Counted from the first letter of the stretch, positions 11,180 through 33,017 are shown. The stretch is 33,017 nt of DNA from Acidimicrobiales bacterium (GCA_052032035.1 JBPEXC010000060.1:1-33017); one strand, 5' to 3'. Notes: generated by a model from the letters alone, not told the origin. Numbers and translations are program-made.

Positions 11180-12370
11180 TCATGTGAAGGCCGACTGGCC
11201 GGTGATGGCCTGTCCCATCATCAGCGTGTGGATCTCGTTGGTCCCCTCGTAGGTGTAGACCGACTCGAGGTTGTTCATGTGGCGGGCGACCGGGTACTCG
11301 GTCGTGATCCCGTTGGCGCCGAGCACCGACCGGGACTCGCGGGCCACCTCGAGGGCCATGCGGACGTTCTGCCGCTTGCCGAAGCTGACCTGGGCGGGGC
11401 CGAGCGTGCCGGCGTCCTTGAGTCGGCCGAGGTGGTAGGCGACGAGGGTGCCCGACTGCACGGCGGTCATGAAGTCGACGAGCTTCTGCTGGGTGAGCTG
11501 GAAGCGGCTGATCGGGCCGCCGAACTGCTCGCGGGAGTTGGCGTAGTCGAGGGCGGCCTCGTAGCACGCCCGGGCGGCGCCGACGGCGCCGAACGCGATG
11601 CCGAAGCGAGCCTCGTTGAGGCAGCTGAGCGGACCGCGCATCGAGGCGACGCCGGGGAGCACGGCCTCGGCCGGGAGCCGGACGTCCTCCATGATCAGTT
11701 CGCTCGTGACCGAGGCCCGCAGCGACACCTTGCGCTCGATCTTGGGGGCGCTGAACCCGTCGACGTCGGTGGGCACCACGAAGCCACGGATGCCCTCGTC
11801 GGTGCGGGCCCACACCACGGCGACATCGGCGATCGAGCCGTTGGTGATCCACATCTTGGCGCCGTTGAGGATCCAGTCGCCGCCCGGCTCCTGCTTGGCG
11901 TTGGTCCGCATCGAACTCGGGTCGGAGCCGGAGTCGGGCTCGGTGAGGCCGAAGCAGCCGATGGCGTCGCCCGCCGCCATGCGGGGCAGCCACTCCTGCT
12001 TGTGCTCCTCGGAGCCGTAGGCCCAGATCGGGAACATCGCCAGCGAGCCCTGCACGCTGACGAAGCTCCGGAGGCCGGAGTCGCCGGCCTCGAGCTCCAT
12101 GCAGGCGAGCCCGTACATGAAGGCGGAGGAGCCAGAGCAGCCGTAGCCCTCTAGGTGCATGCCGAGCAGGCCGAGGTCGCCACAGGCCTTGGCGACCTCG
12201 GCGTGGGGGAAGTCGCCCTGGTCGAACCAGTCGCCGACGTCGGCCAGGATCTGCTCGTCGACGTAGCGGCGAACCGTGTCGCGCAGCAGGATCTCGTCCT
12301 CGGCGAGGAGGGAGTCGGTGGCGAGGAAGTCGCGCGGGTTCTCGGACTTGGGTCCCAGGGGTTGAGCCAT
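11180..12370 (-). CDS. acyl-CoA dehydrogenase (glutaryl-CoA dehydrogenase-like)
   Basis: DSGLRSFVSVQGSL, GCFGLTEPDSGSDP, GAKMWITNG, CLNEARFGI, REQFG, NLESVYTYEGT. Confidence 0.9.
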   Translation of the reverse strand: MAQPLGPKSENPRDFLATDSLLAEDEILLRDTVRRYVDEQILADVGDWFDQGDFPHAEVAKACGDLGLLGMHLEGYGCSGSSAFMYGLACMELEAGDSGLRSFVSVQGSLAMFPIWAYGSEEHKQEWLPRMAAGDAIGCFGLTEPDSGSDPSSMRTNAKQEPGGDWILNGAKMWITNGSIADVAVVWARTDEGIRGFVVPTDVDGFSAPKIERKVSLRASVTSELIMEDVRLPAEAVLPGVASMRGPLSCLNEARFGIAFGAVGAARACYEAALDYANSREQFGGPISRFQLTQQKLVDFMTAVQSGTLVAYHLGRLKDAGTLGPAQVSFGKRQNVRMALEVARESRSVLGANGITTEYPVARHMNNLESVYTYEGTNEIHTLMMGQAITGQSAFT

Positions 12371-12490
12371 GGGCGGGGATGATAGGCAACCGGCGGCGAA
12401 CAGCGATAGCCGCGAGAAGTTCACCTTGCCGCCCGGTCGGTGCCGCGCGGCGTTCAGCCGTCGGTCGACCAGGGGGTTCAGCATGGCGTC

Positions 12491-13675
12491 ATGCGCGTGC
12501 TCATCTCGGCCGAGAGCTTCGAACCGTCGATCAACGGGGTCACCAACTCGGTGCTCCGCATGGTGCGGCACCTGCGGGCCCGTGGCCACGTGGTCGAGGT
12601 GGTGGCACCTGCGCCCGGCCCCGACCGCACCGTCGGCGACGTGCCGGTGACGCGGGTGCCCGGCGCCACGATCCCGTTCTACGGGTCGATGACCTTCGGG
12701 CTGGCCGGGTCGCGCGCGGTCGACGAACTGCTCGAGCGGTTCCGACCCGACGTGGTGCACCTGGCGGCCCCCGTCGTGCTCGGCGCCCGGGTCGGCGAGC
12801 GGGCGGCGGCCCGCGGCGTGCCCGTCGTGGCGATCTTCCAGACCGACATCAGCGGCTTCGTCCGGCAGTACGGGCTGTCGGCGATGTCGGGGCCGGTGTG
12901 GGCGTGGCTGCGGCGGGTCCACCGCAACGCCGGCCGGACCCTGGCCCCGACCGAGACCGTGGCCGACGAGCTCGAACGGCGGGGTTTCGGTGAGGTGGCG
13001 GTGTGGGGGCGCGGCGTCGACCACGGCCAGTTCGACCCCGCCCGCCGCAACCGACGACCCGACGACGACCGGGTGCGGGTCGGCTACGTGGGGCGGCTCG
13101 CCAAGGAGAAGCAGCTCGACCACCTCGCGCCGCTGGCCGAGCTGCCGGGCGTCGACCTCGTCGTGGTCGGCGACGGGCCCGAACGCGACGCGCTCGAGGC
13201 CCTGATGCCGAACGCCACGTTCACCGGCTTCCTCGGCGGCGACGACCTCGGCGAGGCGGTGGCGTCGCTCGACGTGTTCGTCCACACCGGCACGCACGAG
13301 ACGTTCTGCCAGTCGATCCAGGAGGCGATGGCCGCCGGCGTGGCGGTGGTGGCGCCGGCGTCGGGTGGGCCCCTCGATCTCGTGCGGCCCGAGGAGACCG
13401 GGGTGCTCTATCCCCCGGCCCGCCCCGCCGAGTTGGTCGCGGCGGTCGCCCGGTTGGCCGGCGACGCCGCGCTACGGGCCCGCTTCGGTGCAGCGGCCCG
13501 CACCCGGGTGGCGAGCCGCACGTGGGAGGCGATCGGCGACGAGCTGATCGGCCACTACGAAGCGGTGATCGCAGCCCGCAGCTTGTCGGCCATGGCGTCG
13601 AGTTCGTCGGCCATCGGCGAGGTGTCGGCATTGCGGAAGTCGAGGTTCGCCATCGAGGCCAACGGCACCACGTGA
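12491..13675 (+). CDS. GT4 glycosyltransferase, MgtA/PimB/SQD2-like (probable glycolipid synthase)
   Basis: ESFEPSINGVTNSV, PDVVHLAAP, FQTD, WGRGVD, YVGRLAKEK, HETFCQSIQEAMAAG. Confidence 0.85.
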   Translation: MRVLISAESFEPSINGVTNSVLRMVRHLRARGHVVEVVAPAPGPDRTVGDVPVTRVPGATIPFYGSMTFGLAGSRAVDELLERFRPDVVHLAAPVVLGARVGERAAARGVPVVAIFQTDISGFVRQYGLSAMSGPVWAWLRRVHRNAGRTLAPTETVADELERRGFGEVAVWGRGVDHGQFDPARRNRRPDDDRVRVGYVGRLAKEKQLDHLAPLAELPGVDLVVVGDGPERDALEALMPNATFTGFLGGDDLGEAVASLDVFVHTGTHETFCQSIQEAMAAGVAVVAPASGGPLDLVRPEETGVLYPPARPAELVAAVARLAGDAALRARFGAAARTRVASRTWEAIGDELIGHYEAVIAARSLSAMASSSSAIGEVSALRKSRFAIEANGTT

Positions 13676-13956
13676 ACGTGGGTGTGGGGCACCTCGAAGC
13701 CGGCGATCATCAACCCGATCCGCTCGCAGGGCACCACCGACTTCTGGGCCCGCCCGACCCGGTGGGCGACCGCCATCAGGTGCTGGGCGAGCTCGGGGTC
13801 GAGGTCGGTCCACTGGTCGATCTCGGCCTTGGGGATCACCAGCGTGTGGCCCGGGTGGAGCGGCCGGATGTCGAGCATGGCGATGCAGTGCTCGTCGTCG
13901 TGGAGGATCCGCCCGGGGATCTCGCCGTTGATGATGCGGGTGAAAATCGACGCCAT
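13555..13956 (-). CDS. HIT family protein
   Basis: SIFTRIINGEIP, DIRP..PGHTLVIPK, GFEVPHTHVHVVP (histidine triad). Confidence 0.92.
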   Translation of the reverse strand: MASIFTRIINGEIPGRILHDDEHCIAMLDIRPLHPGHTLVIPKAEIDQWTDLDPELAQHLMAVAHRVGRAQKSVVPCERIGLMIAGFEVPHTHVHVVPLASMANLDFRNADTSPMADELDAMADKLRAAITAS

Positions 13957-13982
13957 GGCCCGCACGGTAGATCATGGGGCCC

Positions 13983-14765
13983 ATGAGCTCCGAGCCTGCC
14001 GTTCTCGCCACGACCGCCGACGGGGTGTGCACCCTCACCCTCAACCGGCCGGAGGCCAAGAACTCGCTGTCGGTCGAGCTGGTCGGCGCGCTGTACGACG
14101 CCCTCGCCGCCGCCATCGCGGAGGAGTCGACCCGGGTCGTCGTCCTCACCAACGCCGGCAACACCTTCTGCGCCGGCGCCGACCTGAAGGCCTCGCGACC
14201 CGGCGTCGGCGCCGGCAGCGGGCCGACGTTCGTCGACGTGTTCAAGCTCATCCAGGCGTCCCCGACCCCGATCGTCGGCCGCATCGACGGCCACGCCACG
14301 GGGGGCGGCGTCGGTCTGGTGGCGGCCTGCGACCTGTCGGTGATGCGCGACGACGCCAAGATCGGTTTCACCGAGGTGCGCCTCGGCGTGGCGCCGGCGG
14401 TGATCAGCGTGGTGTGCCTGCCCAAGATGCGGCGCAGCGATGCCAGCGAGCTGTTCCTCACCGGCCGCCGCTTCACGCCGAGCCACGCGGCGGAGGTCGG
14501 CCTGATCAACCGGGCCGCACCGGCCGACGAGATCGACGAGGTGGTCGACGGCTGGGTCGGCGAGCTCGTACGAGGCGGACCGGTGGCCCTCGGCGCCGCC
14601 AAGGACCTGCTGACCCGGATCCCGGACATGGACGACGACAAGGCGTTCGACTGGACCTCGGTGCGCAGTCAGGAGCTGTTCGACGGCCCGGAGGCCCAGG
14701 CCGGGATCGCCGCCTTCCGCGACCGCACCGACGCTCCGTGGGTGCCCGAGAAGTACCGCGCATGA
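13983..14765 (+). CDS. enoyl-CoA hydratase/isomerase family protein
   Basis: LTLNRPEAKN, FCAGADL, GGGVGLVAACD, FTEVRLGVAP. Alternative ATG at 13974. Confidence 0.9.
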   Translation: MSSEPAVLATTADGVCTLTLNRPEAKNSLSVELVGALYDALAAAIAEESTRVVVLTNAGNTFCAGADLKASRPGVGAGSGPTFVDVFKLIQASPTPIVGRIDGHATGGGVGLVAACDLSVMRDDAKIGFTEVRLGVAPAVISVVCLPKMRRSDASELFLTGRRFTPSHAAEVGLINRAAPADEIDEVVDGWVGELVRGGPVALGAAKDLLTRIPDMDDDKAFDWTSVRSQELFDGPEAQAGIAAFRDRTDAPWVPEKYRA

Positions 14766-17450: not shown

Positions 17451-17876
17451 TTAGGTCGCGGCGTAGCGCTCGGCTTCGATGGTGATGAAGATGTCGGCGA
17501 GGTAGCCGTAGGCGGCGGCCCACGCGTCGACGATCGAGGCGTCGAGTTCGCCGAGCACGTCGGTCATCGCGCCGAGCAGCATCTCCCCGACGATCGGGTA
17601 GTGCTCGGGCTGCACGCCGGCGGCCACGTGCTTGGCGGCGATGCCCTCGACGACCGGCACGAGGGTCTCGATCTTGTCGATGTTGGCGGCGTAGGCGATC
17701 ACCGCGTTGGCGAGCCGCTGCTCCTGGCCCGGCGTGGTGTCGGCGAAGAACGCCTTGGTCTCGGGGTACTCGGTGAAGAGCTTCTCGTACATGCGGGTGG
17801 TGATCGCCAACCCGTGCTCCTGCACCACCGGGTGGGTGCTCTTCACGATCGCCTTGGTCTCGTCACTCAGGGTCAT
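17451..17876 (-). CDS. single-domain bacterial globin (Vitreoscilla Hb / flavohemoglobin globin-domain type)
   Basis: ITTRMY (TyrB10), PETKAFF (PheCD1), GQEQRLA (GlnE7), IAAKH (HisF8), PEHYPIVG, AWAAAY; 141 aa with no reductase domain. Confidence 0.93.
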   Translation of the reverse strand: MTLSDETKAIVKSTHPVVQEHGLAITTRMYEKLFTEYPETKAFFADTTPGQEQRLANAVIAYAANIDKIETLVPVVEGIAAKHVAAGVQPEHYPIVGEMLLGAMTDVLGELDASIVDAWAAAYGYLADIFITIEAERYAAT

Positions 17877-17957
17877 CCCCCGATGCAACCAACCCCCCGT
17901 GTCCCCCACGTCGCCCTGCGATCACAGATCCGTGGCGAACTTCTCTCACTGCTGCTG

Positions 17958-22926: not shown

Positions 22927-24275
22927 GACGGGTCCTGCTCGGCGAGCAGCCGCTCGACCAGTCGTTCGAGTCCGGCGACGCGGCTGCCCTTGACCAGCAC
23001 GGCATCGCCCTCACCGATCGCCCCGACGGCGGCGAGTGCGCCCTCCATGTCGGCATCGAGGTCGGCGACGTGGCGCGCCGCGCCGCCGTAGGCGGGGGCA
23101 CCGACGGCGATCACGTCGATCCCGACGGCGGCGGCCTCGGCCGCGATCGCCGCGTGTTCGGCCTCACCGTCGTCGCCGAGTTCCCCCATCACCCCCATCA
23201 CCGCCACCCGCCGACCGGCGACGTCGACCGCTCGGAGGGCCTCGAGGGCGGCCCGCATCGAGGTCGGGTTGGCGTTGTAGGCGTCGTCGAGCACGAGGGC
23301 CCCGGCCGCCGTGGTGGTGACGTCCATCCGGTGGGCCGACAGGGTGGCGGCGGCGATGCCGTCGGCGGCGGCTTCGAGGGGCACGCCCACGATGCCGGCC
23401 ACGGTGAGGGCGGCGGCGGCGTTGGTGGCCATGTGGGCGCCGCTGACCGGGACGGTGACCCTGACCGACCCCCACGGGGTGTCGAGGGTGGCGGTCGGCC
23501 GGGCCAGGGCGTCGAGGCCGACGTCGACGATGCGGACGTCGGCATCGGCGTGGTGGCCGTAGGTGAACACCGCGGCCCGGGTGCGGGCGGCCATGGCGAG
23601 GACCCGGGGGTCGTCGTGGTTGAGCACGGCGGTGCCGGCCTGGCCGAGGGCCTCGACCAGTTCGCCCTTGGCGGCGGCGACCCCGTCGAGGTCGCCGAGC
23701 AGTTCGGTGTGGGCCGACGCCACCCGGGTCACCACCGCGATGGTCGGCCGCGCGATGCGGCACAGGTGGGCGATGTGACCGAGCCCGCGGGCGCCCATCT
23801 CGCAGACCGCCACCTCGGTGTCGCCCGGGGCGTTGACCAGCGTGAGCGGCAGACCCAGCTCGTTGTTGAACGACGCCGGGTTGGCGTGGGTGCGCTTCGT
23901 GGCGGCGCAGGCGGCGGCGATCAGGTCCTTGACCGAGGTCTTGCCGACGCTGCCGGTGACCCCGACGACCGGCGCCGGCGTGAGCCGGTCGCGAGACGCG
24001 ACGGCCAGCAGGTTCAGGGCCTCGGTGGTGTCGCGCACCTCGATGCGGGGCCCGTTGGCGACGTCGCCCCGGGAGGTGAGGTAGGCGCCGGCCCCGGCGG
24101 TGAGGGCGGCCTGGGCGAAGTCGTGGCCGTCGCGGTCGGCGACGACGGGCACGAACAGGGCGCCGGGTGCCACCGAGCGGGAGTCGATCGTGGCGCCGGT
24201 GACGGTGACGTCGGGGCCGTGGAGGGTGCCGCCGACCGTGGCGGCGAGGGCGGAGGCGAGGAACTGCACGATCAC
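22923..24275 (-). CDS. murF: UDP-N-acetylmuramoyl-tripeptide--D-Ala-D-Ala ligase
   Basis: IDSR, DGHDF, GVTGSVGKTSVKD, SFNNELGLPLT, EMGARG.GHI, DDAYNANPTSM, MGELG, VLVKGSR. Confidence 0.95.
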   Translation of the reverse strand: MIVQFLASALAATVGGTLHGPDVTVTGATIDSRSVAPGALFVPVVADRDGHDFAQAALTAGAGAYLTSRGDVANGPRIEVRDTTEALNLLAVASRDRLTPAPVVGVTGSVGKTSVKDLIAAACAATKRTHANPASFNNELGLPLTLVNAPGDTEVAVCEMGARGLGHIAHLCRIARPTIAVVTRVASAHTELLGDLDGVAAAKGELVEALGQAGTAVLNHDDPRVLAMAARTRAAVFTYGHHADADVRIVDVGLDALARPTATLDTPWGSVRVTVPVSGAHMATNAAAALTVAGIVGVPLEAAADGIAAATLSAHRMDVTTTAAGALVLDDAYNANPTSMRAALEALRAVDVAGRRVAVMGVMGELGDDGEAEHAAIAAEAAAVGIDVIAVGAPAYGGAARHVADLDADMEGALAAVGAIGEGDAVLVKGSRVAGLERLVERLLAEQDPS

Positions 24276-24304
24276 CGTTCTACCGGGGAAGTACCCTCCG
24301 GCGG

Positions 24305-25381
24305 GTGACCGAACCCGGCAAGATCCGCCTCGTCGTCCTCTTCGGAGGTCAGTCGGCCGAGCACGACGTGTCGTGCACCACGGCCACCCACGTGATCACG
24401 GCCGCCGCAGCGTCGGGCCACTACGAGATCGAGCCGGTGGGGATCACCCGCGACGGCACCTGGGTGCGGGCCGAGGCCGCGGCCGAACTGTTGGCGGCCA
24501 AGGAGGCCCTGCCGCCGGCGCTGTCGCCGGACGGGCCGGCCGTCGAGCCGGGGGCACTGCTCTCCCCCGTCGGCGAGACGGCGACGGTCGCGCTGCCGTT
24601 GCTGCACGGCCCCCTCGGCGAGGACGGCACCGTCCAGGGACTGTTCGAGCTGGCCGGCGTGCCCTACGTGGGGTCCGGGGTCCTCGGCTCGGCACTGGCG
24701 ATGGACAAGGTGAAGGCCAAGGAGGCGATCGCCCACGCCGGGATCGCCCAGACCCGGTGGCGGCCGCTGTTCGAGCCGACGTGGGACGGCGATCTCGACG
24801 CGATCGTCGACGACCTCGGCCTGCCGGCGTTCGTGAAGCCGGCGAACATGGGCTCGTCGGTCGGGGTGTCGAAGTGTCGGACCGTCGAGGAGTTGGCGGC
24901 CGGCATCGAGGCGGCGTTCCGGTACGACGAGTGGGTGGTGGTCGAGGAGGCGGTGACGGCTCGGGAGATCGAGCTGGCCGTGCTCGGCAACGTCGAGCTG
25001 CGGGTGTCGGTGGCGGGCGAGATCCTGCCGGCGGCCGACTTCTACGACTACGACGACAAGTACCTGGCCGGCAACAGTTCCGAGGTCATCCCCGCCGTGC
25101 TGCCCGACGGTACCGAGGCCGAACTGCAGCGCCTGGCGGCCGACGCGTTCCGGGTGCTGCGGTGCGAGGGGTTGGCCCGGGCCGACTTCCTCTACGAGGA
25201 GGGCGGCCGCGGTCCGCTGCTCAACGAGCTCAACACGATGCCGGGCTTCACCCCGATCTCGATGTACCCCAAGCTGTGGGCGGCGTCGGGCCTCGACTAC
25301 CCCGACCTGATCGACGAGCTCGTCCGCCTCGCCGTCGAGCGGCACGGCCGACGTGCGAGCAAGCGCATCACGACTCGCTGA
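24305..25381 (+). CDS. ddl: D-alanine--D-alanine ligase
   Basis: LFGGQSAEHDVS, LHGPLGEDGTVQG, MDK, FVKPANMGSSVG, FYDYDDKY (Tyr omega loop), NELNTMPGFT. Confidence 0.96.
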   Translation: MTEPGKIRLVVLFGGQSAEHDVSCTTATHVITAAAASGHYEIEPVGITRDGTWVRAEAAAELLAAKEALPPALSPDGPAVEPGALLSPVGETATVALPLLHGPLGEDGTVQGLFELAGVPYVGSGVLGSALAMDKVKAKEAIAHAGIAQTRWRPLFEPTWDGDLDAIVDDLGLPAFVKPANMGSSVGVSKCRTVEELAAGIEAAFRYDEWVVVEEAVTAREIELAVLGNVELRVSVAGEILPAADFYDYDDKYLAGNSSEVIPAVLPDGTEAELQRLAADAFRVLRCEGLARADFLYEEGGRGPLLNELNTMPGFTPISMYPKLWAASGLDYPDLIDELVRLAVERHGRRASKRITTR

Positions 25382-25400: not shown

Positions 25401-26645
25401 ATGGGGCCCGACTTCCGGCGGCTCGTCGCCTCGTCGTGGAGTTCCAACCTCGGCGACGGGATCGCGATCGCCGCCGCGCCCCTGCTCGTCGCGTCGCAGA
25501 CCGACAGCGCCTTCCTGATCGCTGCCGCCCTCGGCCTCCAGCGACTGCCGTGGGCCGTGCTCGGGCTCTACGCCGGCGCCATCGCCGACCGGGTCGACCG
25601 GCGGCGCCTGATCGTGGCGGCCAATTTGGCACGCGTCGTGGTCCTGGCGGTGCTGTCGGCGGCGTTGCTGGGAGACGCGGTGAACGTGGCGGTGGTGCTC
25701 GCCGCGGTGGCGTTGCTCGGCACGGCGGAGACGTTCGCCGACGTGGCCTCCGGCACGCTGCTGCCGATGATCGTCGACGCCGACGACCTCGGGGTGGCCA
25801 ATGCCCGCCTCGGGTTCGGCCGGATCACGCTCAATCAACTGGCCGGGCCGGCGATCGGCGCCTTCCTGTTCGCCGCCTCGAGCGCCCTGCCGTTCCTGAC
25901 CCAGGCCACCACCGTCGCACTCGCCGCCGTCGTCGTCGCCAGGATGGCGATCCCGGCCCCGGTCACGCGACCGAACCCGACCTCGGTCCGGGCCGACATC
26001 GTCGAGGGCGCCCGCTGGGTGTGGTCGACGCCGCCGATCCGCACGCTGACGATCACGATCATCGCCTTCAACATCACCTTCGGGGCGCTCTCCGGCGTGC
26101 TGGTGCTGGCCGCCCGCCAGCGCCTGGGACTGGCCGACTCCGGTTTCGGGCTGCTGCTGTCGACCAGCGCGGTGGGCGGCGTGCTCGGCACGATGATCTA
26201 CGGCCGGCTCGAGCGCTCCCTCGGACGCACCTGGATCCTCCGGGTCGGGCTGCTGGTGGAGACGCTCACCCAGCTCGCGTTCGCCTGGTCGACGAGCGTG
26301 GCGGTGGTGTTCCCGGTCTTCTTCGTGTTCGGGATCCACGAGGCCGCGTGGGGCGCGACGGTGGCCACCATTCGGCAGCGGCTGGTGCCCGAACACCTCA
26401 TGGGGCGGGTCGGGAGCGTCTACTCGGTCGGGCTGTTCGGCAGCCTCGTGGTCGGGTCGACCGTGGGCGGGCTCATCGCGGACCGCTGGGGCGTCACCGC
26501 GCCGATGTGGTTCGGCTTCGCCGGCTCGGCGGGGTTGCTGCTCGTGCTCTGGCGACCGCTCGCCGCCCTCGTCACTCCAGGTCCGGATCGTCCTTCGGCG
26601 GCCGGTACAGCCGGCCCAGATAGCAGTCGAGGCCATAGGCAGTGA
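25401..26645 (+). CDS. MFS transporter (DHA3/H+ antiporter-like)
   Basis: SNLGDG, GAIADRVDRRRL (motif A), about 12 TM helices, RQRLVPEHLMGRV. Alternative GTG start at 25353. Confidence 0.88.
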   Translation: MGPDFRRLVASSWSSNLGDGIAIAAAPLLVASQTDSAFLIAAALGLQRLPWAVLGLYAGAIADRVDRRRLIVAANLARVVVLAVLSAALLGDAVNVAVVLAAVALLGTAETFADVASGTLLPMIVDADDLGVANARLGFGRITLNQLAGPAIGAFLFAASSALPFLTQATTVALAAVVVARMAIPAPVTRPNPTSVRADIVEGARWVWSTPPIRTLTITIIAFNITFGALSGVLVLAARQRLGLADSGFGLLLSTSAVGGVLGTMIYGRLERSLGRTWILRVGLLVETLTQLAFAWSTSVAVVFPVFFVFGIHEAAWGATVATIRQRLVPEHLMGRVGSVYSVGLFGSLVVGSTVGGLIADRWGVTAPMWFGFAGSAGLLLVLWRPLAALVTPGPDRPSAAGTAGPDSSRGHRQ

Positions 26646-27879
26646 GCGACTCGCCGAGCGGTTTCGACGGACCGTCGACCTCGGGTGGCTCGGCCTCGAG
26701 CGGCTTGGAGACCTTGGGCGGCGGCTTCCATCGGGTGCCGTCGAGGGTCACGACCATGAACAGCCCCGTCAGCTCCGGATGTCGTCGGAGACGCAGGTCG
26801 GGATGCTCGTGCAACGTGCGATGGTGGTGGCCGCAGATCATCGCCAGGCCGTCGACGCTGGTCTGCTGACGGTCCTCCCAGTGGACGACGTGGTGAGCGT
26901 GGAGGCCGGTGGTGACACCGCACCCGTCGATCACGCACTCGGGCTGCATCGTCGCCAGCACCTGTCGCATCCAGCCGGGTGCCAGGCGGGTCTCGTGCGA
27001 CACCCAGACCGGGTGCCCGCCACGCCGCAGCATCCAGCGGGCTCGGATGCGTTCGTCGAAGATCCGATCGAGTTCGGCGTCGGTGATCGGCGTGCCGTCG
27101 GGCGCCGCCACACCGTCGCTGCCCCCGGACTCCTCGAACTCGTCGAGGTCGATCGTGACCATCGCCAGGAAACGCTCGTTGACCGCCCCACCGCCGTTGG
27201 CGAGGAGGTGCCACAGCGCCTCGGCCATCGTGGCGTGGTGCATCGTGCCGTCGGGCTTGCGATGGGACAGCTCGGCCCGGGTCTGCGCCAACTGTTCCCG
27301 GATCGCGGCGCCGTGCGCGTCGGTCCAGCGGCCGTTCATGACGAAGCCGCCCTGGTGGTGGCCGACGAGGCTGACGTGGTCGACGATCTCCTGCGGGGGC
27401 GGTTCGGGATCGTTGAGCCGGCGGGTGTGGGCACACGTGCGCTGGAGCTGGCCGACGGACAGGTCGTTGGCGTAGCGGACGAGATCGGCCTCGGTCTCGC
27501 CGTCGCTCGACCGGGTGATCACGTCGGCGGCCGTGAGACCGAGCTCGCCGTTGGCGAACGCCGCCGACAGCGCCGGTCGCTCGGCTGCACCCCGCCCGAC
27601 CGTCAGGTACCTCGTGGCCTCGGAGGTAGAGAGGTGGAGCTCGTGGGAGATCCGGTGCTCGACCGACCGGAAGCCGAACCCGGCGCCGGACGGGTCGTCG
27701 TCGAGCGCCTCGGCCAAGTCGGCGACCGCGTCGGACAGCTCGGCCTGGAGGGCGTTGATCTGGCCGGTGATCCGTCGGGCTCGGCGCGACAGCAGCTCGA
27801 CCCGGTCGACGCCCGAACCCGCCGAGGCGCCGCCGGCGTCGTCACCAGCTCCGTTGTCGTAGAACCCCGCCGAATCCAT
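26572..27879 (-). CDS. DUF222 (13E12 repeat-like) protein with C-terminal HNH-type domain
   Basis: N-terminal 'GFRSVEH...L.LSTSEATR' helical region; C-terminal CVIDGC...HAHHVVHW...LAMICGHHH..LH. ATG at 27879 follows a -10-like box; the ORF track start is 27891. Confidence 0.82.
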   Translation of the reverse strand: MDSAGFYDNGAGDDAGGASAGSGVDRVELLSRRARRITGQINALQAELSDAVADLAEALDDDPSGAGFGFRSVEHRISHELHLSTSEATRYLTVGRGAAERPALSAAFANGELGLTAADVITRSSDGETEADLVRYANDLSVGQLQRTCAHTRRLNDPEPPPQEIVDHVSLVGHHQGGFVMNGRWTDAHGAAIREQLAQTRAELSHRKPDGTMHHATMAEALWHLLANGGGAVNERFLAMVTIDLDEFEESGGSDGVAAPDGTPITDAELDRIFDERIRARWMLRRGGHPVWVSHETRLAPGWMRQVLATMQPECVIDGCGVTTGLHAHHVVHWEDRQQTSVDGLAMICGHHHRTLHEHPDLRLRRHPELTGLFMVVTLDGTRWKPPPKVSKPLEAEPPEVDGPSKPLGESLTAYGLDCYLGRLYRPPKDDPDLE

Positions 27880-27886
27880 GGTCCCC

Positions 27887-27908
27887 ATCATGACGAGGGG
27901 GTGTGACA
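27887..27908 (-). promoter_or_regulatory. PafBC/RecA-NDp-like promoter candidate
   Basis: Minus strand TGTCAC-N10-CATGAT-N7-ATG; spacing matches the mycobacterial TGTCGG-N10-TANNNT motif, with mismatches. Confidence 0.45.
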
Positions 27909-27909
27909 G

Positions 27910-29079
27910 TCACGAGGCCACCCTGGTGGCGAGACAGACGGCGCCGGCGACGGCGAGCACGGCGGCGGCGATCGAGATCGCCGTGATGCCACCGGCGGCC
28001 CACAACGTCGTCGCCCCGACGCTGGTGACCGCACGACCGGCGGTGAGGGTGATCCCCGCCCACCCGACGACCTCGGCTCGCCGATCGGTCGACAGCTCGG
28101 TGATCATCACCATCAGGGCGATGAAGCCGACCTCGAAGGCGACGATGCCGGCGGTGAGCAGACCGAGGCCGACGACCCGGTCGTCGCCGGCGAGCGGAAG
28201 GGCGGCGAACAGCGGGGCGAGGGCGACGAGCCCGACCAGCGCCGTGCGGCGGCTGCCGAAGCGATCGGCCCAGGCGGTCACCGCCGCCGTGCCGACGAGT
28301 TCGCCGAGGCCGAGCACCACCACGGCCCCGCCGATGCCCTCCACCGAGAGGCCGAGCTGCTCCTCCATCCAGATGCCGTGGGCGACCATCACGAGCTGGT
28401 GGGAGCCGGACACGAGGCCCAGCACCACCATCGCCGGCAGCACGGTCTTGGGAAGGGGTCCGAGGTCGGCCGACGGGGCGGCGACCCGCTCGGCCCGGGG
28501 CACCGCAGATCGGACCACCACGACGGCCACCACAGCGGCGACGGCGGTGACGACGAAGGCCTCGCGCCACGACCACGCGTCGATCACCAACCCGATCACC
28601 GGGGTGCCGACGAGGAGCGAGAGGGCCCACGCGAACTCGGTGGCACCGATCACGCGACCACGCCGTTCGAACGGCACGACGGCGCCGATCCACGAGATCA
28701 TCGCCAGGTCGTAGAGCGGCTTGCCGAAGCCGATGAGTGCGAAGCCGAGCCCGAACCACCAGGCACCGCCGAGGACGACCAACGCGGCGCCGCCGGCGAC
28801 GATCGTGAGGCCGGTGACCATCGTGTTCCGGTAGCCGAGCCGGTCGGATCGACCGCCGAGCCACGACGCCGGGATGCCGAGCAGGAGTTGGATCGACAGC
28901 ACCACGCCCGCCGCGCCGAGCGAGAGGCCGGCGCCCCGGGCGATGGCGGGCAGGAACGAGAGCGGGAAGCGGAGGGCCACGTTGGTGACCCACCGTCCGA
29001 ACGCCAGCGCGGCGACCGGCCGGCCGACCGAGGGCGCGTCGAGCGCCTCGACGGCGGAGTCGGTCGGTGCGGCGCTCAC
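27910..29079 (-). CDS. MFS transporter
   Basis: [10 protein letters not shown] and WADRFGSRR motif-A repeats; about 12 TM helices; GTG start after -10-like CATGCT. Confidence 0.85.
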
Positions 29080-29120
29080 CCCAGCAGCATGCCGACATCG
29101 GCGAGGTGTATCGTTGGTGT

Positions 29121-29312
29121 ATGGCGCGCACGAACATCGACATCGACGACGAGCTCTGCCGGCGCGTGATGCAGCGCTATCACCTCCGCACCAAACGAGA
29201 GGCGGTCGACCTCGCGCTCCGTCGGCTGGCCGAGGAACCGCTCGCCGACGCCGACGCACGATCGCTCCGCGGATCGGGCTGGGAAGGTGACCTCGACGAG
29301 ATGCGTTCGTGA
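29121..29312 (+). CDS. vapB: VapB antitoxin (ribbon-helix-helix)
   Basis: [12 protein letters not shown]...[13 protein letters not shown]...[10 protein letters not shown]; GTGA overlap with the PIN gene. Confidence 0.9.
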
Positions 29313-29704
29313 TCCTCGTCGACACCTCGGCCTGGGTCGAGTTCCTCCGAGACACGGGCTCCCCGGTCTGCCAGGCGGTCGACGACCTGCTCGCCGACGA
29401 CCTCGCCGTCTGTGATCCGATCTCGATGGAGGTGCTGGCCGGGGCCCGCAACCAACGGCACCTCGGCGACCTCCGTCGCCTGCTCGCCCGCTGCACCGTG
29501 CTCCCCACCGAACCGGCCGACTTCGAGACCTCCGCCGCCCTCTACCGGACGTGTCGGACCAAGGGCGAGACGGTCCGCAAGCTGATGGACTGCCTCATCG
29601 CCGCCGTGGCCATCCGCCACGGCGCCGCACTCCTGCACGCCGATGCGGACTTCGGCGCCCTCGAACGACACGCCGGACTGGTGGTCCACCCCCGCTCGGC
29701 GTGA
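29309..29704 (+). CDS. vapC: VapC PIN-domain ribonuclease toxin
   Basis: [33 protein letters not shown] (acidic PIN residues present). Confidence 0.92.
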
Positions 29705-29708
29705 GCGA

Positions 29709-30290
29709 CTACGGCTCGAGGGCGGCGCGGAGGAAGTCGAGGACCGTGCGGCGCAGGCGGGCCGCGGTGCGCAGGTCGAGATCGAGGCCGACCGCCCGGA
29801 GCACGCCGGCGTCCGCCACCACGCCGGTGACGGCGGCGTAGACGCTGACCAACAACAGCGCCGGGTCGGCCCTGCGGAACACCCCGGCCTCCATCTGCTC
29901 GGCCAGCGACGCCACCGCCCGGTCGATCAGCGGCTGCAGCTCGGCCAGCACCGCATCCGAATGGGGTGGACCGACGCGGGTCACCTCACGCAACAGGCCC
30001 AACAGCTCCGGCCGCCGCACCGCCAGATCGAACGCCGCCCGCACCGCGGCCTCGACCCGAGGCCACCCGAGCGCCGGCCCGTCCATCGCCCCGGCCAGCG
30101 TCGCCCCGAGCTCGGCCGCCCCGGCGGAGAACACCGCCGCCAGCAGTCCGTCCTTGGAACGGAAGTGGTAGAGCACCGCCTGCTTGGTCACGCCGAGCTC
30201 ACGCGCCAGGTCGTCGAGCGACGTGGCGGCGACGCCCCGCTCGGCGAAGGCCGCCGACGCAGCCTCGATCGCACGCTGCTTCGTCGCCAT
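29709..30290 (-). CDS. TetR/AcrR family transcriptional regulator
   Basis: AFAERGVAATSLDDLARELGVTKQAVLYHFRSKDGL HTH. Confidence 0.93.
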   Translation of the reverse strand: MATKQRAIEAASAAFAERGVAATSLDDLARELGVTKQAVLYHFRSKDGLLAAVFSAGAAELGATLAGAMDGPALGWPRVEAAVRAAFDLAVRRPELLGLLREVTRVGPPHSDAVLAELQPLIDRAVASLAEQMEAGVFRRADPALLLVSVYAAVTGVVADAGVLRAVGLDLDLRTAARLRRTVLDFLRAALEP

Positions 30291-30323
30291 GGCCGCCGAT
30301 CCTAGCTATCCTCGGACCGTTCC

Positions 30324-30337
30324 TGACCGATTGGTAA
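30324..30337. promoter_or_regulatory. putative TetR operator in the divergent promoter region
   Basis: Imperfect palindrome TGACCGATTGGTAA, AT-rich against the background, downstream of a plus-strand -10 (TATCCT, 30307-30312); minus-strand -10 TAGGAT precedes tetR. Confidence 0.55.
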
Positions 30338-30363
30338 AGAGCCCCCGAGAGGCCGCACCTCCC

Positions 30364-32715
30364 ATGATCGCCGAACAGCTCGCCGGACAACGCATCGCCA
30401 TCACCGGCGGCACCGGGTTCCTCGGCACCGCCCTCATCGAACGGCTGATGCGGCAGGTCCCCGACTGCGAACTCGTCCTCCTCGTGCGCCCGGGCAAGCG
30501 GTCGACCCCGACCGAGCGGGCCCGCCGCGAGATCTTCCGCAACGACGCCTTCCACCGCATGATCACCGAGCGGGGCGAGACCCCCCGCAAGGCGCCGACG
30601 TTCTGGGACGAGGTCGAGCGCCGCGTCACCGTGATCGCCGGCGACGTCTCCAGCGACGGCCTGGGCCTGAACGACGACGACCGCGCCATCCTCGCCGGCT
30701 GCGACACCGTCATCCACTCGGCCGCCACCGTCAGCTTCGAGGCCCCGCTCGACGGCGCCATCGAGGTCAACCTCCTCGGCGCCACCCGCATCGCCGAGAC
30801 CCTCCAGAGCCTGGAGGTCACCCCCCACCTCGTCGCCGTGTCGACCTGCTACGTCGCCGGCAACCGCCGCGGCTCGGCCCCCGAACAGCTCCTGACCGAC
30901 TCGCCGTTCCACATCGACGTCGACTGGCGAGCCGAGGTGAAGGCCGCCCGCCGCACCCGCAGCGACTTCGACGCCGAGAGCCGTAGCGCCGAACGCCTCG
31001 AGGAGTTCCGGGCCCGAGCCCGCCACGAACTCGGCGCCGCCGGCACGCCCCTGCTCGCCGCCAAGACCGAGCAGTACCGCCAGCGCTGGGTGACCGAGCA
31101 GCTCGTCGAGGCCGGCCGGGCCCGCGCCGCCTCGCTGGGCTGGCCCGACGCCTACGCCTACACCAAGGCCCTCGGCGAGCGAGCACTCGTCGAGTCCAAG
31201 GCCGACGTGCCGGTGTCGATCGTGCGCCCGTCGATCATCGAGTCGGCCTGGGCCGAGCCGGTCCCGGGCTGGATCAAGGGCTTCCGCATGGCGGAACCGA
31301 TCCTGATCTCCTACGCCCAGGGCCTGCTGCGCGAGTTCCCCGGCGTGCCCGAGGGTGTCGTCGACGTCATCCCGGTCGACATCGTGGTCGCCGCCATCGT
31401 CGCCGTCGCCGCCAAGGGCCCGAGCGACGACGGGTCGGTCCCGGTCACCCAGGTCGCCTCCGGCACCCGCAACCCGCTCCACTACCGCACCCTGGTCGAC
31501 CTCGTGTCGGGCTGGTTCACCGAGCACCCGCTCTACGACAAGAAGGGTCAGCCGATCGCAGTCGCCCCCTTCAGCTTCCCCGGCCGCGGCGCCGTCGAAC
31601 GCCAACTCGACCGAGCCCACAAGAGCCTCGACCGGGCCGACAAGGCCCTCAAGCTGCTCCCGCTCCGGGGCAAGCAGGCGCTGATCAACGCCGACGTCGA
31701 GGACAAGATGGAGCAGGTCGAGCGGGCCAAGACCTACGTGAAGATCTACGGCGCCTACGCCGAGTGCGAGGCCCTCTACGGGGTCGAGAAGCTCCTCGAA
31801 CTCCACGAGTCGCTCGACCCCGCCGACCAGGAGGCTCTCGCCCTCGACCCCGGCATCGTCGACTGGCGCCGCTACGTCACCGAGATCCACCTGCCCTCGG
31901 TCGTCGAGCACGCCAGGGTGAAGACCTCGGGCGAACGCAGCGACCCCGACGCCCGCGTCAAGCGGCTCCGCAAGCGGGTGCTCGCCCCCGAGCGCCACAT
32001 CGCGGCGTTCGACCTCGAGAACACGATCATCGCGTCGAACGTGGTGTTCTCCTACGCCTGGCTGGCCACCCGCAACATGACGCCGGGCGAGCGAGTGCGC
32101 TTCACGATGAAGACCCTGCAGGAGGCCCCCGGCCTGCTCGCCCTCGACCAGCGCGACCGCACCGACTTCCTGCGCCACTTCTACCGCCGCTACGACGGCG
32201 CGTCGGTGGCCGAGATGGATCGGCTCGGCGCCGAGCTGCTGAGCGACCACATCCTGACCAAGGCGTTCCCCGCCGCGGTCCGCCGGGTCCGCAAGCACCG
32301 CGAGCTCGGCCACCGCACCGTGTTGATCACCGGCGCCCTCAACATCGTGGTCGACCCGCTGCGGCCACTGTTCGACGACGTGATCTGCGCCGAGATGTCG
32401 GTGCGTGACGGCCGCTACACCGGCGAGCTCCTCGCCGTGCCGCCCACCGGCGAGATCCGGGCCCAGGCGCTGCGCGACTACGCGGAGGCCCACGACCTCG
32501 ACCTCGCCGAGTCGGTGGCCTATGCCGATTCGTCGTCGGATCTCCCCCTGCTCGACGCCGTCGGGTTCCCCGTTGCCGTCAACCCCGAGACCCGCCTCGC
32601 CTCCATCGCGGTGAAGCGCGGCTGGCTCGTGGAGTACTGGTCCAAGGCCCAGGGCGGTTCCGACCGCGCGCTCCCCCTCGGCCCCCTCCCCTCGCTCCGC
32701 CGGAGCAGGAAGTAG
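30364..32715 (+). CDS. fatty acyl-CoA reductase (male-sterility/extended SDR) fused to a C-terminal HAD-IB phosphatase
   Basis: ITGGTGFLG, IHSAATVSF, VSTCYV, YAYTK, VRPSIIES, DVIPVD (FAR). From about 32011: FDLENT, LITG, AYADSSSDLPLL, AVNP (HAD-IB). Confidence 0.88.
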   Translation: MIAEQLAGQRIAITGGTGFLGTALIERLMRQVPDCELVLLVRPGKRSTPTERARREIFRNDAFHRMITERGETPRKAPTFWDEVERRVTVIAGDVSSDGLGLNDDDRAILAGCDTVIHSAATVSFEAPLDGAIEVNLLGATRIAETLQSLEVTPHLVAVSTCYVAGNRRGSAPEQLLTDSPFHIDVDWRAEVKAARRTRSDFDAESRSAERLEEFRARARHELGAAGTPLLAAKTEQYRQRWVTEQLVEAGRARAASLGWPDAYAYTKALGERALVESKADVPVSIVRPSIIESAWAEPVPGWIKGFRMAEPILISYAQGLLREFPGVPEGVVDVIPVDIVVAAIVAVAAKGPSDDGSVPVTQVASGTRNPLHYRTLVDLVSGWFTEHPLYDKKGQPIAVAPFSFPGRGAVERQLDRAHKSLDRADKALKLLPLRGKQALINADVEDKMEQVERAKTYVKIYGAYAECEALYGVEKLLELHESLDPADQEALALDPGIVDWRRYVTEIHLPSVVEHARVKTSGERSDPDARVKRLRKRVLAPERHIAAFDLENTIIASNVVFSYAWLATRNMTPGERVRFTMKTLQEAPGLLALDQRDRTDFLRHFYRRYDGASVAEMDRLGAELLSDHILTKAFPAAVRRVRKHRELGHRTVLITGALNIVVDPLRPLFDDVICAEMSVRDGRYTGELLAVPPTGEIRAQALRDYAEAHDLDLAESVAYADSSSDLPLLDAVGFPVAVNPETRLASIAVKRGWLVEYWSKAQGGSDRALPLGPLPSLRRSRK

Positions 32716-32718
32716 CCC

Positions 32719-33017
32719 ATGCCCTCCTCTCGTCGCCCCAACCCCCGCCCTGGCTTCGTCCTCGAGGTCGACCGCCAGACCCCTCCCCTGCTGTTCCACC
32801 ACGGCGAGGGGTTCCGGATGGAGAAGCTGCCGGTGGGCCGCAGCCGCGTGATCTACCCGGCCGAGCCGCTGGAGGGCCTCGCCCATCCCGACCACGAGAT
32901 CCGGCAGGCCCTGCTCCACCCGATCGAGGACGACCCGTTGCCCTCGCTGCTGAAGCCGGGCATGAAGCTGACGATCGCGTTCGACGACATCTCGCTGCCC
33001 CTGCCTCCGATGCAGCG
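32719..33017 (+). CDS. lactate racemase (LarA/DUF2088) domain protein, 3'-truncated
   Basis: My translation: MPSSRRPNPRPGFVLEVDRQTPPLLFHHGEGFRMEKLP...IRQALLHPIEDDPLPSLLKPGMKLTIAFDDISLPLPPMQ. 'AL.HP....PL......KLTIAFDD' resembles the LarA N-terminus. Not in the ORF track because there is no stop in the window. Confidence 0.75.
   Translation, partial: MPSSRRPNPRPGFVLEVDRQTPPLLFHHGEGFRMEKLPVGRSRVIYPAEPLEGLAHPDHEIRQALLHPIEDDPLPSLLKPGMKLTIAFDDISLPLPPMQ

Follow-up and report, generated by a model that had tools for sequence, protein, structure and literature searches.

A TetR-associated operon of Acidimicrobiales that links a fatty acyl-CoA reductase-phosphatase fusion to a LarA homolog and might tailor glycerolipids

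What role does a homolog of the nickel-pincer enzyme LarA play when its gene closely follows one for a fatty acyl-CoA reductase (FAR)? The question is raised by the 3′ end of a 33,017-nucleotide stretch of DNA (hereafter the window; GCA_052032035.1 JBPEXC010000060.1:1-33017), which is the entire contig C504 of an Acidimicrobiales metagenome-assembled genome (MAG; G000). There, a TetR-family repressor gene (tetR) is divergent from a gene coding for a FAR fused to a HAD-IB phosphatase (FAR-HAD), and the gene for a LarA homolog (LarAH) begins after a 3-bp spacer. These features had been described in an earlier reading of the sequence alone (the sequence-only reading), and all were recovered by open reading frame (ORF), Pfam and NCBIfam searches. 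The explanation we favor, which we hold tentatively and with somewhat less than even confidence, is that the locus is a TetR-gated, nickel-dependent module for glycerolipid tailoring, composed of divergent tetR, FAR-HAD, LarAH and a PlsC-type acyltransferase and working with a zinc-dependent medium-chain dehydrogenase/reductase (MDR). An ether lipid as the specific outcome is less likely than this general reading. Gene content, conservation, catalytic motifs that are intact, and genes for making the cofactor NPN (nickel-pincer nucleotide) were observed directly, as described below.

The FAR-HAD gene (30364..32715, plus strand) codes for a protein of 783 amino acids. Its ORF is open from a TTG at 30184, and homologs align from the ATG at 30364. 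The NAD_binding_4/‘male sterility’ domain (PF07993) spans residues 13-345 (E 1.8e-56, 191.6 bits), and the 532-residue chain of PDB 7eoz, named ‘fatty acyl-CoA reductase’, matches the FAR part (E 4.6e-53) with its best stretch at residues 244-517. Both G15xxG18xxG21 and Y264xxxK268 proved to be conserved when 71 sequences were aligned, and the ‘Sterile’ domain (PF03015) is recorded on many FAR-HAD homologs. Judged from these sequence features, namely a Rossmann domain, the GxxGxxG and YxxxK motifs and a FAR C-terminal region that extends to about residue 517, the reductase part (30400..31914, plus strand) is a complete FAR of the alcohol-forming type.

The phosphatase domain occupies residues 547-730 (32002..32553, plus strand), where matches were obtained with the Pfam HAD model (E 4.5e-29), with PDB 3fvv (E 1.2e-15) and with the HAD-IB model TIGR01490 (115.9 bits, cut-off 98.3). 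The score over this cut-off and the presence of catalytic motifs I-IV place the domain in the HAD-IB group. Motif I reads FDLENT (D550, E552 and T554) and motif IV reads YADSSSD. Across 71 Acidimicrobiales sequences, every position of FDLENT is retained in 98% or more. In other families, motif I takes the form D-x-[D/E]-G-T, and the acid/base position stays Asp or Glu in all families looked at. Fused FAR-HAD homologs number more than 5,000 at E<=1e-30. As a lead only, FAR plus HAD fusions of about 791 residues also form an Atlas cluster that is commonest in Acidobacteriota.

Two known groups of proteins help to define what is unusual about this fusion. It shares with bacterial alcohol-forming FARs (PDB 7eoz; M. 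tuberculosis FCR1/FCR2) a full-length homology to 7eoz, the Rossmann motif and YxxxK, but adds a C-terminal HAD-IB domain and a genomic tie to LarAH, MDR and acyltransferase genes. The HAD-IB plus PlsC acyltransferase fusions of Actinomycetota likewise combine a TIGR01490-type HAD with glycerolipid acyl transfer, whereas here the HAD domain is fused to a reductase and the acyltransferase is encoded by a separate gene. In several loci, a HAD-acyltransferase fusion paralog is encoded 5-10 kb away from the operon. Its motif I has the form D-x-D-x-T, in contrast to D-x-E-x-T in the Acidimicrobiales FAR-HAD proteins.

The stop codon of FAR-HAD ends at 32715 and the ATG of LarAH is at 32719. Only the first 99 codons of LarAH are present (32719..33017, plus strand), cut by the contig end. 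This fragment matches Lar_N (E 6.5e-07) and the NCBIfam model NF052592, LarAH_14_15_16 (E 5.3e-34, 117.5 bits). The operon was predicted to run past the edge of the window, and residues 114-537 of LarAH are indeed encoded on another contig of the same genome (G000:C169:2-1273). A second genome of the same genus (G001) carries the locus on one contig at 99% identity, and its LarAH is full-length at 537 residues with an NF052592 score of 871.2 bits against a cut-off of 740. The full-length ortholog also matches PF09861 (E 1e-34).

An AlphaFold model of LarAH (pLDDT 88.4) has only LarA-family chains among its top 19 PDB matches. The best fits are the single-histidine enzymes 9q3k and 9q3j (TM 0.82-0.85; Foldseek E 1.4e-32 and TM 0.85 for 9q3k), and true racemases rank next. 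LarAH also matches LarA_Sp (PDB 9q2u) with a phmmer E-value of 1.7e-37. In the HMMER alignments, D90 corresponds to the ribose binder Asp73 of LarA_Sp, K208 to the NPN tether Lys195, H224 to the nickel ligand His211, and H132 to the catalytic His115. An Asn in the motif VNIN (N197/N199) occupies the place of the second catalytic histidine and aligns with Asn185. Y369 and H467 align with the substrate-site residues Tyr307 and His401, Pro368 replaces His306, and Leu93 aligns with Lys76, which is the position of the Arg or Lys that binds the substrate carboxylate. K208, H224, H132 and D89/D90 are invariant. Across 22 sequences that reach down to 52% identity, the aligned site residues overall show little or no variation.

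LarAH thus has the Lar_N domain, two-domain fold and NPN and nickel residues of the LarA superfamily, and it is without the His174 equivalent and the Arg75-type carboxylate binder (LarA_Lp numbering) that characterize two-histidine racemases and epimerases. The sequence-only reading had expected non-racemase chemistry, and the protein does not group with proven racemases, given its replaced second histidine and the single-histidine enzymes that are its closest structures. Absence of a His174 equivalent is reported for groups 14 and 15 in section 2.1 of PMC12611868, which agrees with the assignment of LarAH, as an ortholog over the family cut-off, to the NF052592 family that includes a LarAH14 of a Frankia species. 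This group-14 enzyme, according to the account in PMC7583248, was inactive in seven racemase/epimerase assays with soluble hydroxyacids. The presence of Leu93 where a carboxylate-binding Arg or Lys would be expected argues against a free acid as the substrate. The likeness to the single-histidine enzymes LarA_Sp and LarA_Bw (PDB 9q2u, 9q3k and 9q3j) extends to the two-domain fold, the Asp/Lys/Ni-His set for NPN, the single catalytic histidine with Asn, and the retained substrate-site Tyr and His (Y369 and H467). However, LarAH is only 20-24% identical to them, differs at His306 (Pro368) and Lys76 (Leu93), and is encoded among FAR, HAD and acyltransferase genes rather than carbohydrate genes. 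As a separate lead only, an Atlas cluster of 471-residue Lar_N proteins is commonest in Myxococcota (score 0.92). Both Acidobacteriota and Myxococcota are discussed as ether-lipid producers in papers that include the review PMC9131029.

Is LarAH supplied with the nickel cofactor? There are no lar biosynthesis genes within the window, as had been noted, and this absence had been taken as a hint of non-nickel chemistry. That hint does not hold, since larE (292 bits) and larB (239.6 bits), each scoring above its cut-off, are located elsewhere in the genome on contig C442 together with the start of larC, which is cut by the contig end and continues on contig C262. Nor are the cofactor genes generally missing where LarAH occurs. 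Among LarAH-positive genomes of the same order (the sample of relatives introduced below), LarC scores above the cut-off in 30 of 34 genomes and LarE does so in 31. Because LarAH is the sole Lar_N-family match in 30 of 33 genomes, it is likely the sole client of the NPN pathway in those species. This observation and the presence of larE, larB and larC in the genome lead us to conclude that LarAH is most probably a genuine nickel-pincer enzyme. One distant locus has a LarE-like gene after that for the acyltransferase.

The sequence-only reading depended on the pairing of FAR-HAD with LarAH, and this pairing proved to be widely conserved. In a sample of 40 relatives from the same order (41 genomes with our own), the fusion is present in 36 of the 40, two of which carry degraded copies. 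LarAH is present in 33 relatives (34 of 41 genomes when our own is included), where it almost always adjoins FAR-HAD or lies 1.1-1.5 kb from it. We also collected 80 species-representative loci with a LarAH profile. LarAH falls within the cluster in all 80, FAR-HAD is upstream of LarAH in 79 and the acyltransferase gene is downstream in 79, with a cut contig accounting for the exception in each case. An MDR gene is located between FAR-HAD and LarAH in 34 of these loci. A divergent TetR homolog was detected by tblastn in most of them, and an upstream ddl gene is also usual.

The association extends well beyond the order. Among 300 other genomes drawn evenly from the phylum Actinomycetota, 78 carry both genes, and in 72 of these the two are linked, on the same contig and strand and no more than 8 kb apart, with a distance of 1.2-1.4 kb in most cases. 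This count includes four genomes flagged as unpublished (G127, G265, G187 and G121) and becomes 68 of 74 when they are excluded. FAR-HAD occurs without a LarAH ortholog in four of the 300 genomes, two of which are less than 75% complete, and ortholog-level LarAH occurs without FAR-HAD only in G177 and G244 (71% and 75% complete). Eleven further genomes have only a distant LarA-family paralog (at most 44% identity). Ten of these have no FAR-HAD, and the remaining one, G192, belongs to the four genomes with FAR-HAD but no LarAH ortholog. Moreover, the two genes appear to have decayed together in two genomes (G016:C25:35435-39122 and G027:C13:605731-610973), where many stop codons or frameshifts interrupt FAR-HAD as well as LarAH and LarC and LarE are still found.

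Loci from other families indicate how the cluster might originally have been arranged. In all eight that were examined, the MDR gene is directly after FAR-HAD, in the gap before LarAH, and four of the eight have the full order FAR-HAD, MDR, LarAH, acyltransferase. This four-gene order is probably ancestral. The small genomes of one genus (g6; G006 and G019) keep FAR-HAD and the acyltransferase, yet LarAH was found in neither, and neither has a LarE score above the cut-off. A search of G006, the one g6 genome examined for MDR, did not find this gene either. Since g6 has lost LarAH and retained the other two genes, the data suggest two modules: a core formed by FAR-HAD and the acyltransferase, and an accessory pair for hydride chemistry formed by MDR and LarAH.

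A downstream acyltransferase or dehydrogenase had been predicted as a partner, and both are present. A PlsC-type acyltransferase gene directly follows LarAH on contig C169 of our genome and in G001, with overlapping stop and start codons. The protein is 68% identical (tblastn) to its ortholog in G009, which matches PF01553 with 71 bits, and its own TIGR00530 score of 48.8 bits is under the cut-off of 102.95. An alignment of 63 sequences shows conservation of the motifs NHHSHxD and PEGGRS, and the protein combines the PF01553 domain with the HX4D and PEGGRS motifs of PlsC/AGPAT-type enzymes. The genes that come next code for a nitroreductase, a 5′-nucleotidase and a GntR protein, and none of them is conserved with the cluster. 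In G001 (L016, 8179-8832, minus strand), a match to sigma-70 regions 2, 3 and 4 lies on the strand opposite the acyltransferase and nitroreductase genes and overlaps the acyltransferase ORF.

One carrier family appears to use a different acyltransferase. In three of its four loci, plsY (glycerol-3-phosphate acyltransferase, PF02660) is immediately upstream of FAR-HAD. In this family, 22 of 22 genomes are carriers, and there is no PlsC-type gene near these loci. A PlsY-FAR fusion in locus L108 was considered and rejected because the long ORF upstream of FAR-HAD has no PlsY domain. A YhhN gene (lysoplasmalogenase family) was also rejected as a partner, since it is beside TetR in one locus only (L112) and was not found in our own genome, which is about 80% complete.

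The dehydrogenase partner is a zinc-dependent MDR of the polyol type, a single-copy ortholog with one close match per genome. It resides inside the operon in many relatives (G039, G037, G028 and G031, for example) and elsewhere in the genome in G001, G009, G024, G035 and our own genome, where a partial copy was found at C322:8139-8981. We propose that the single-copy MDR has moved elsewhere in the genome in this family and yet works with the operon. The relocated gene adjoins a radical-SAM/SPASM gene and a small ORF, an arrangement shared by G001:C42 (L122, 4553-7558), G024 (L120) and G009 (L121), and in all three this group is divergent from genes for a Fer4_16 protein, a GT4 glycosyltransferase and an SRPBCC protein. 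In three of the four loci of one carrier family, a protoglobin gene (PF11563) is located between MDR and LarAH (L108, 7670-8323; L109, 10678-11265; L114, 5920-6516). The window has a globin gene at 17454-17921.

The operon carries the hallmarks of control by a TetR repressor. The tetR gene (29709..30290, minus strand) codes for 193 amino acids with a TetR_N helix-turn-helix domain (PF00440, E 2.7e-15) and is separated from the ATG of FAR-HAD by a 73-bp intergenic region. The motif [T/G]ACC-N4-GGTA is present in all 55 tetR/FAR-HAD intergenic regions, with two copies in seven of them. The copy in the window, GACCGATTGGTA (30325..30336; consensus TACC-N4-GGTA), is 27 nucleotides before the ATG, and a relaxed operator pattern occurs in the 33-kb window three times on the plus strand and never on the minus strand. 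A palindromic site had been noticed upstream by the sequence-only reading, which was correct in that a conserved palindrome exists. However, the obvious one at 30296-30315, which is imperfect but more visible, was rejected as the operator because it is not conserved. The TetR_N domain and the conserved palindrome between divergent genes together identify the protein as a TetR-family repressor with an operator.

Can the operon be understood by comparison with a known lipid pathway? The sequence-only reading pointed to the elb ether-lipid operon of Myxococcus xanthus, to which we add MXAN_1675 (FAR plus GNPAT-like) for comparison. As described in the review PMC9131029, ElbB is a HAD-like phosphohydrolase, ElbD has the domains FAR-ACS-ACP-AGPAT, which include acyl-CoA synthetase (ACS) and acyl carrier protein (ACP) domains, and ElbE is an NAD-dependent enzyme. 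The HAD gene that the sequence-only reading had placed in the elb cluster is therefore real. The same reading also placed a putative DUF2088-like gene there, and ElbC is described in the review only as a protein of unknown function. By the domain descriptions in that review, the two systems share a FAR-type reductase, a PlsC/AGPAT-type acyltransferase, a HAD phosphohydrolase and an NAD-dependent dehydrogenase. However, the HAD protein stands alone in elb and is fused to FAR in the operon, the dehydrogenase of the operon is a zinc-dependent MDR rather than an epimerase/dehydratase of the short-chain dehydrogenase type, and we count the nickel-pincer LarA homolog as a further difference. The ACS and ACP domains of ElbD have no counterpart: no AMP-binding or ACP domain was found in domain scans of the operon proteins, and an AMP-binding gene is upstream in one of the eight loci from other families. 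Without an ACS-ACP-FAR-AGPAT megaprotein, the operon falls outside the elb type. Overall, the sequence-only interpretation is supported in part. The set of enzymes runs parallel to that of elb, whereas their arrangement differs.

The combination of a FAR, a phosphatase, an acyltransferase or plsY, a dehydrogenase of the secondary-alcohol type and a hydride-shuttling nickel enzyme that is without the racemase dyad, with a HAD-acyltransferase paralog nearby, points to the tailoring of glycerol-phosphate lipids with an input of fatty alcohol. In such a pathway, the FAR domain would reduce fatty acyl-CoA to an aldehyde or alcohol, the acyltransferase (PlsY in one family) would acylate a glycerol-phosphate backbone, and the fused HAD-IB domain would take the phosphate off. 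MDR and the single-histidine LarAH might act on a secondary alcohol of the backbone through hydride chemistry mediated by NAD and NPN, presumably as keto/alcohol steps via acyl- or alkyl-dihydroxyacetone phosphate of the kind known from aerobic ether-lipid synthesis. A neutral glycerolipid derived from a fatty alcohol, either alkyl or alcohol-containing, would result. With TetR bound to TACC-N4-GGTA, the operon would stay silent until a lipid-like ligand is present. Every substrate and product in this scheme is one that we infer.

Several points weigh against the glycerolipid-tailoring reading. No lipid, substrate, product, alkyl lipid or ether bond was observed. No ether-forming enzyme of the AGPS, ElbD, PlsA or Ger type is present in the cluster, and the genome itself was not searched for such enzymes. 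The residue equivalences of LarAH come from HMMER alignments and not from superposed structures. In three LarAH-positive genomes (G035, G005 and G002), matches over the cut-offs to LarB, LarC and LarE were not found. LarAH and FAR-HAD are intact in all three, and G035 is 98% complete in five contigs, so either the cofactor is gained another way in these species or LarAH works without it there. The retention of the core pair without LarAH in g6 implies that the nickel enzyme is not needed for core-pair function. The named families nearest to MDR, although all far below their cut-offs, are IolM, idonate 5-dehydrogenase and threonine dehydrogenase, whose substrates are sugars, sugar acids and amino alcohols. 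The NF052592 model bears the name ‘NPN-dependent hydroxyacid isomerase’, and LarAH15 from Phytophthora is described in PMC11770544 as a D-gluconate/mannonate 2-epimerase. These family relationships make a polar, non-lipid substrate for LarAH and MDR quite possible. Such a substrate stays in play also because of the loss of LarAH in g6 (and of MDR in G006) and the carbohydrate context of the nearest structures: section 2.6 of PMC12611868 places the LarA_Sp and LarA_Bw genes among genes for glycolysis and carbohydrate use, and suggests that the proteins may bind a phosphorylated sugar.

These same observations underlie the alternative that survives best, in which the product is a neutral storage or surface lipid without an ether bond. 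We view this alternative as possible though unlikely. Here FAR would make fatty alcohols, the acyltransferase and HAD pair would yield mono- or diacylglycerol or alcohol esters, and LarAH and MDR would do no more than prepare or modify a polar acceptor or head group, for example a polyol, a sugar acid or a glycerate-type compound. It accounts well for the persistence of the core genes without LarAH in g6 and without MDR in G006, for the resemblance of MDR to polyol and sugar-acid dehydrogenases, for the gluconate/mannonate epimerase within the LarAH15-named family (PMC11770544), and for the single-histidine enzymes whose genes sit among carbohydrate genes and which may bind a phosphorylated sugar (PMC12611868). 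Conversely, Leu at the carboxylate-binding position speaks against a free acid substrate, and no sugar kinase, transporter or glycosyltransferase gene is conserved in the cluster. PlsC-type enzymes are not known to act as wax synthases, and we count this against the alternative as well.

A bolder version of the glycerolipid-tailoring reading, which we regard as quite unlikely, would make LarAH group 14 the first nickel-pincer enzyme that acts on lipids and is not a racemase. By ‘hydrogen borrowing’, LarAH would transiently oxidize the fatty alcohol made by FAR or C2 of a lyso-glycerophosphate. The resulting carbonyl would condense or exchange, and the NPN hydride would then be returned in a redox-neutral cycle, either creating an alkyl (ether) glycerolipid or inverting a backbone stereocenter. 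If true, bacteria across Actinomycetota would have a third route to ether or stereo-inverted lipids, one that depends on nickel and does without AGPS, ElbD or PlsA/Ger.

It is distinctly improbable that LarAH and MDR are instead a soluble epimerase/dehydrogenase pair for hydroxyacids or sugar acids, tied to FAR-HAD by gene-order history with no common pathway. The name of NF052592 fits such a pair, as does the statement in PMC13524815 that all known LarA-family reactions are racemizations or epimerizations of 2-hydroxy acids. However, mere gene-order history does not readily explain linkage in 72 of 78 genomes from several families of the phylum, a LarAH stop codon that overlaps the acyltransferase start, the joint decay of FAR-HAD and LarAH in G016 and G027, or the restriction of ortholog-level LarAH without FAR-HAD to the incomplete genomes G177 and G244. 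The Frankia member that was inactive in seven hydroxyacid assays, as reported in PMC7583248, adds to these objections. Even less probable is a route to 2-hydroxy-fatty-acyl products or long-chain 1,2-diols, in which LarAH and MDR would act at C2 of a 2-hydroxyacyl thioester, FAR would form the 1,2-diol and acylation would follow; this agrees with LarA-family chemistry at a 2-hydroxy carbon, with a lost carboxylate-binding residue that suits a thioester (which has no free carboxylate) and with the adjacency of FAR and acyltransferase, but the cluster has no fatty-acid 2-hydroxylase, and the conserved phosphatase domain and the plsY neighbor have no role in the scheme. A purely coincidental linkage of the genes has a very slight likelihood.

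The individual protein families of the operon are known and annotated generically, as ‘HAD-IB family hydrolase’, ‘fatty acyl-CoA reductase’ and ‘hydroxyacid isomerase’. In a targeted literature search, we found no paper that joins LarA-family enzymes with FAR, acyltransferase or ether-lipid genes, although Table S1 of PMC7583248, which covers LarAH gene contexts, may list the neighborhood as COGs. The same search found no paper on ether lipids of Acidimicrobiia. The operon is best seen as a new, lipid-linked variant of nickel-pincer LarA systems and points to a lipid pathway without an earlier description. The reaction of single-histidine LarA homologs is given as not known in PMC13524815 and PMC12611868. 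An orphan single-histidine subgroup is now tied to FAR-HAD, to an acyltransferase or plsY and to a dehydrogenase in about a quarter of the Actinomycetota sample, which turns the question of its function into a short list of lipid substrates to test. The association also suggests that nickel availability may shape the membrane or storage lipids of Acidimicrobiia, which are abundant in marine and soil habitats. Should the product be an alkyl lipid, the operon would bear on bacterial sources of ether-lipid biomarkers.

The MAG has 3.69 Mb in 546 contigs, is 79.6% complete and has about 72% G+C. The closest named contigs all belong to Acidimicrobiales/Acidimicrobiia MAGs and two Aquihabitans isolates, and the stretch occurs in DNA datasets from marine sediment and seawater metagenomes, with no RNA dataset listed for it. 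Within the window, ddl (24209-25378) is separated from tetR by a gene for a DUF222 protein (26572-27891), two major facilitator superfamily (MFS) transporter genes and a VapB (PF09957)/VapC PIN (PF01850) toxin-antitoxin pair, which lies at 29067-29704 between an MFS gene and tetR. Because ddl is much nearer to tetR in most relatives, the DUF222, MFS and VapBC genes look like insertions. About 16 kb upstream of the operon (11183-14762) are genes for a 763-residue acyl-CoA dehydrogenase, whose long N-terminal extension is without a Pfam match, a HIT-family protein and an enoyl-CoA hydratase.

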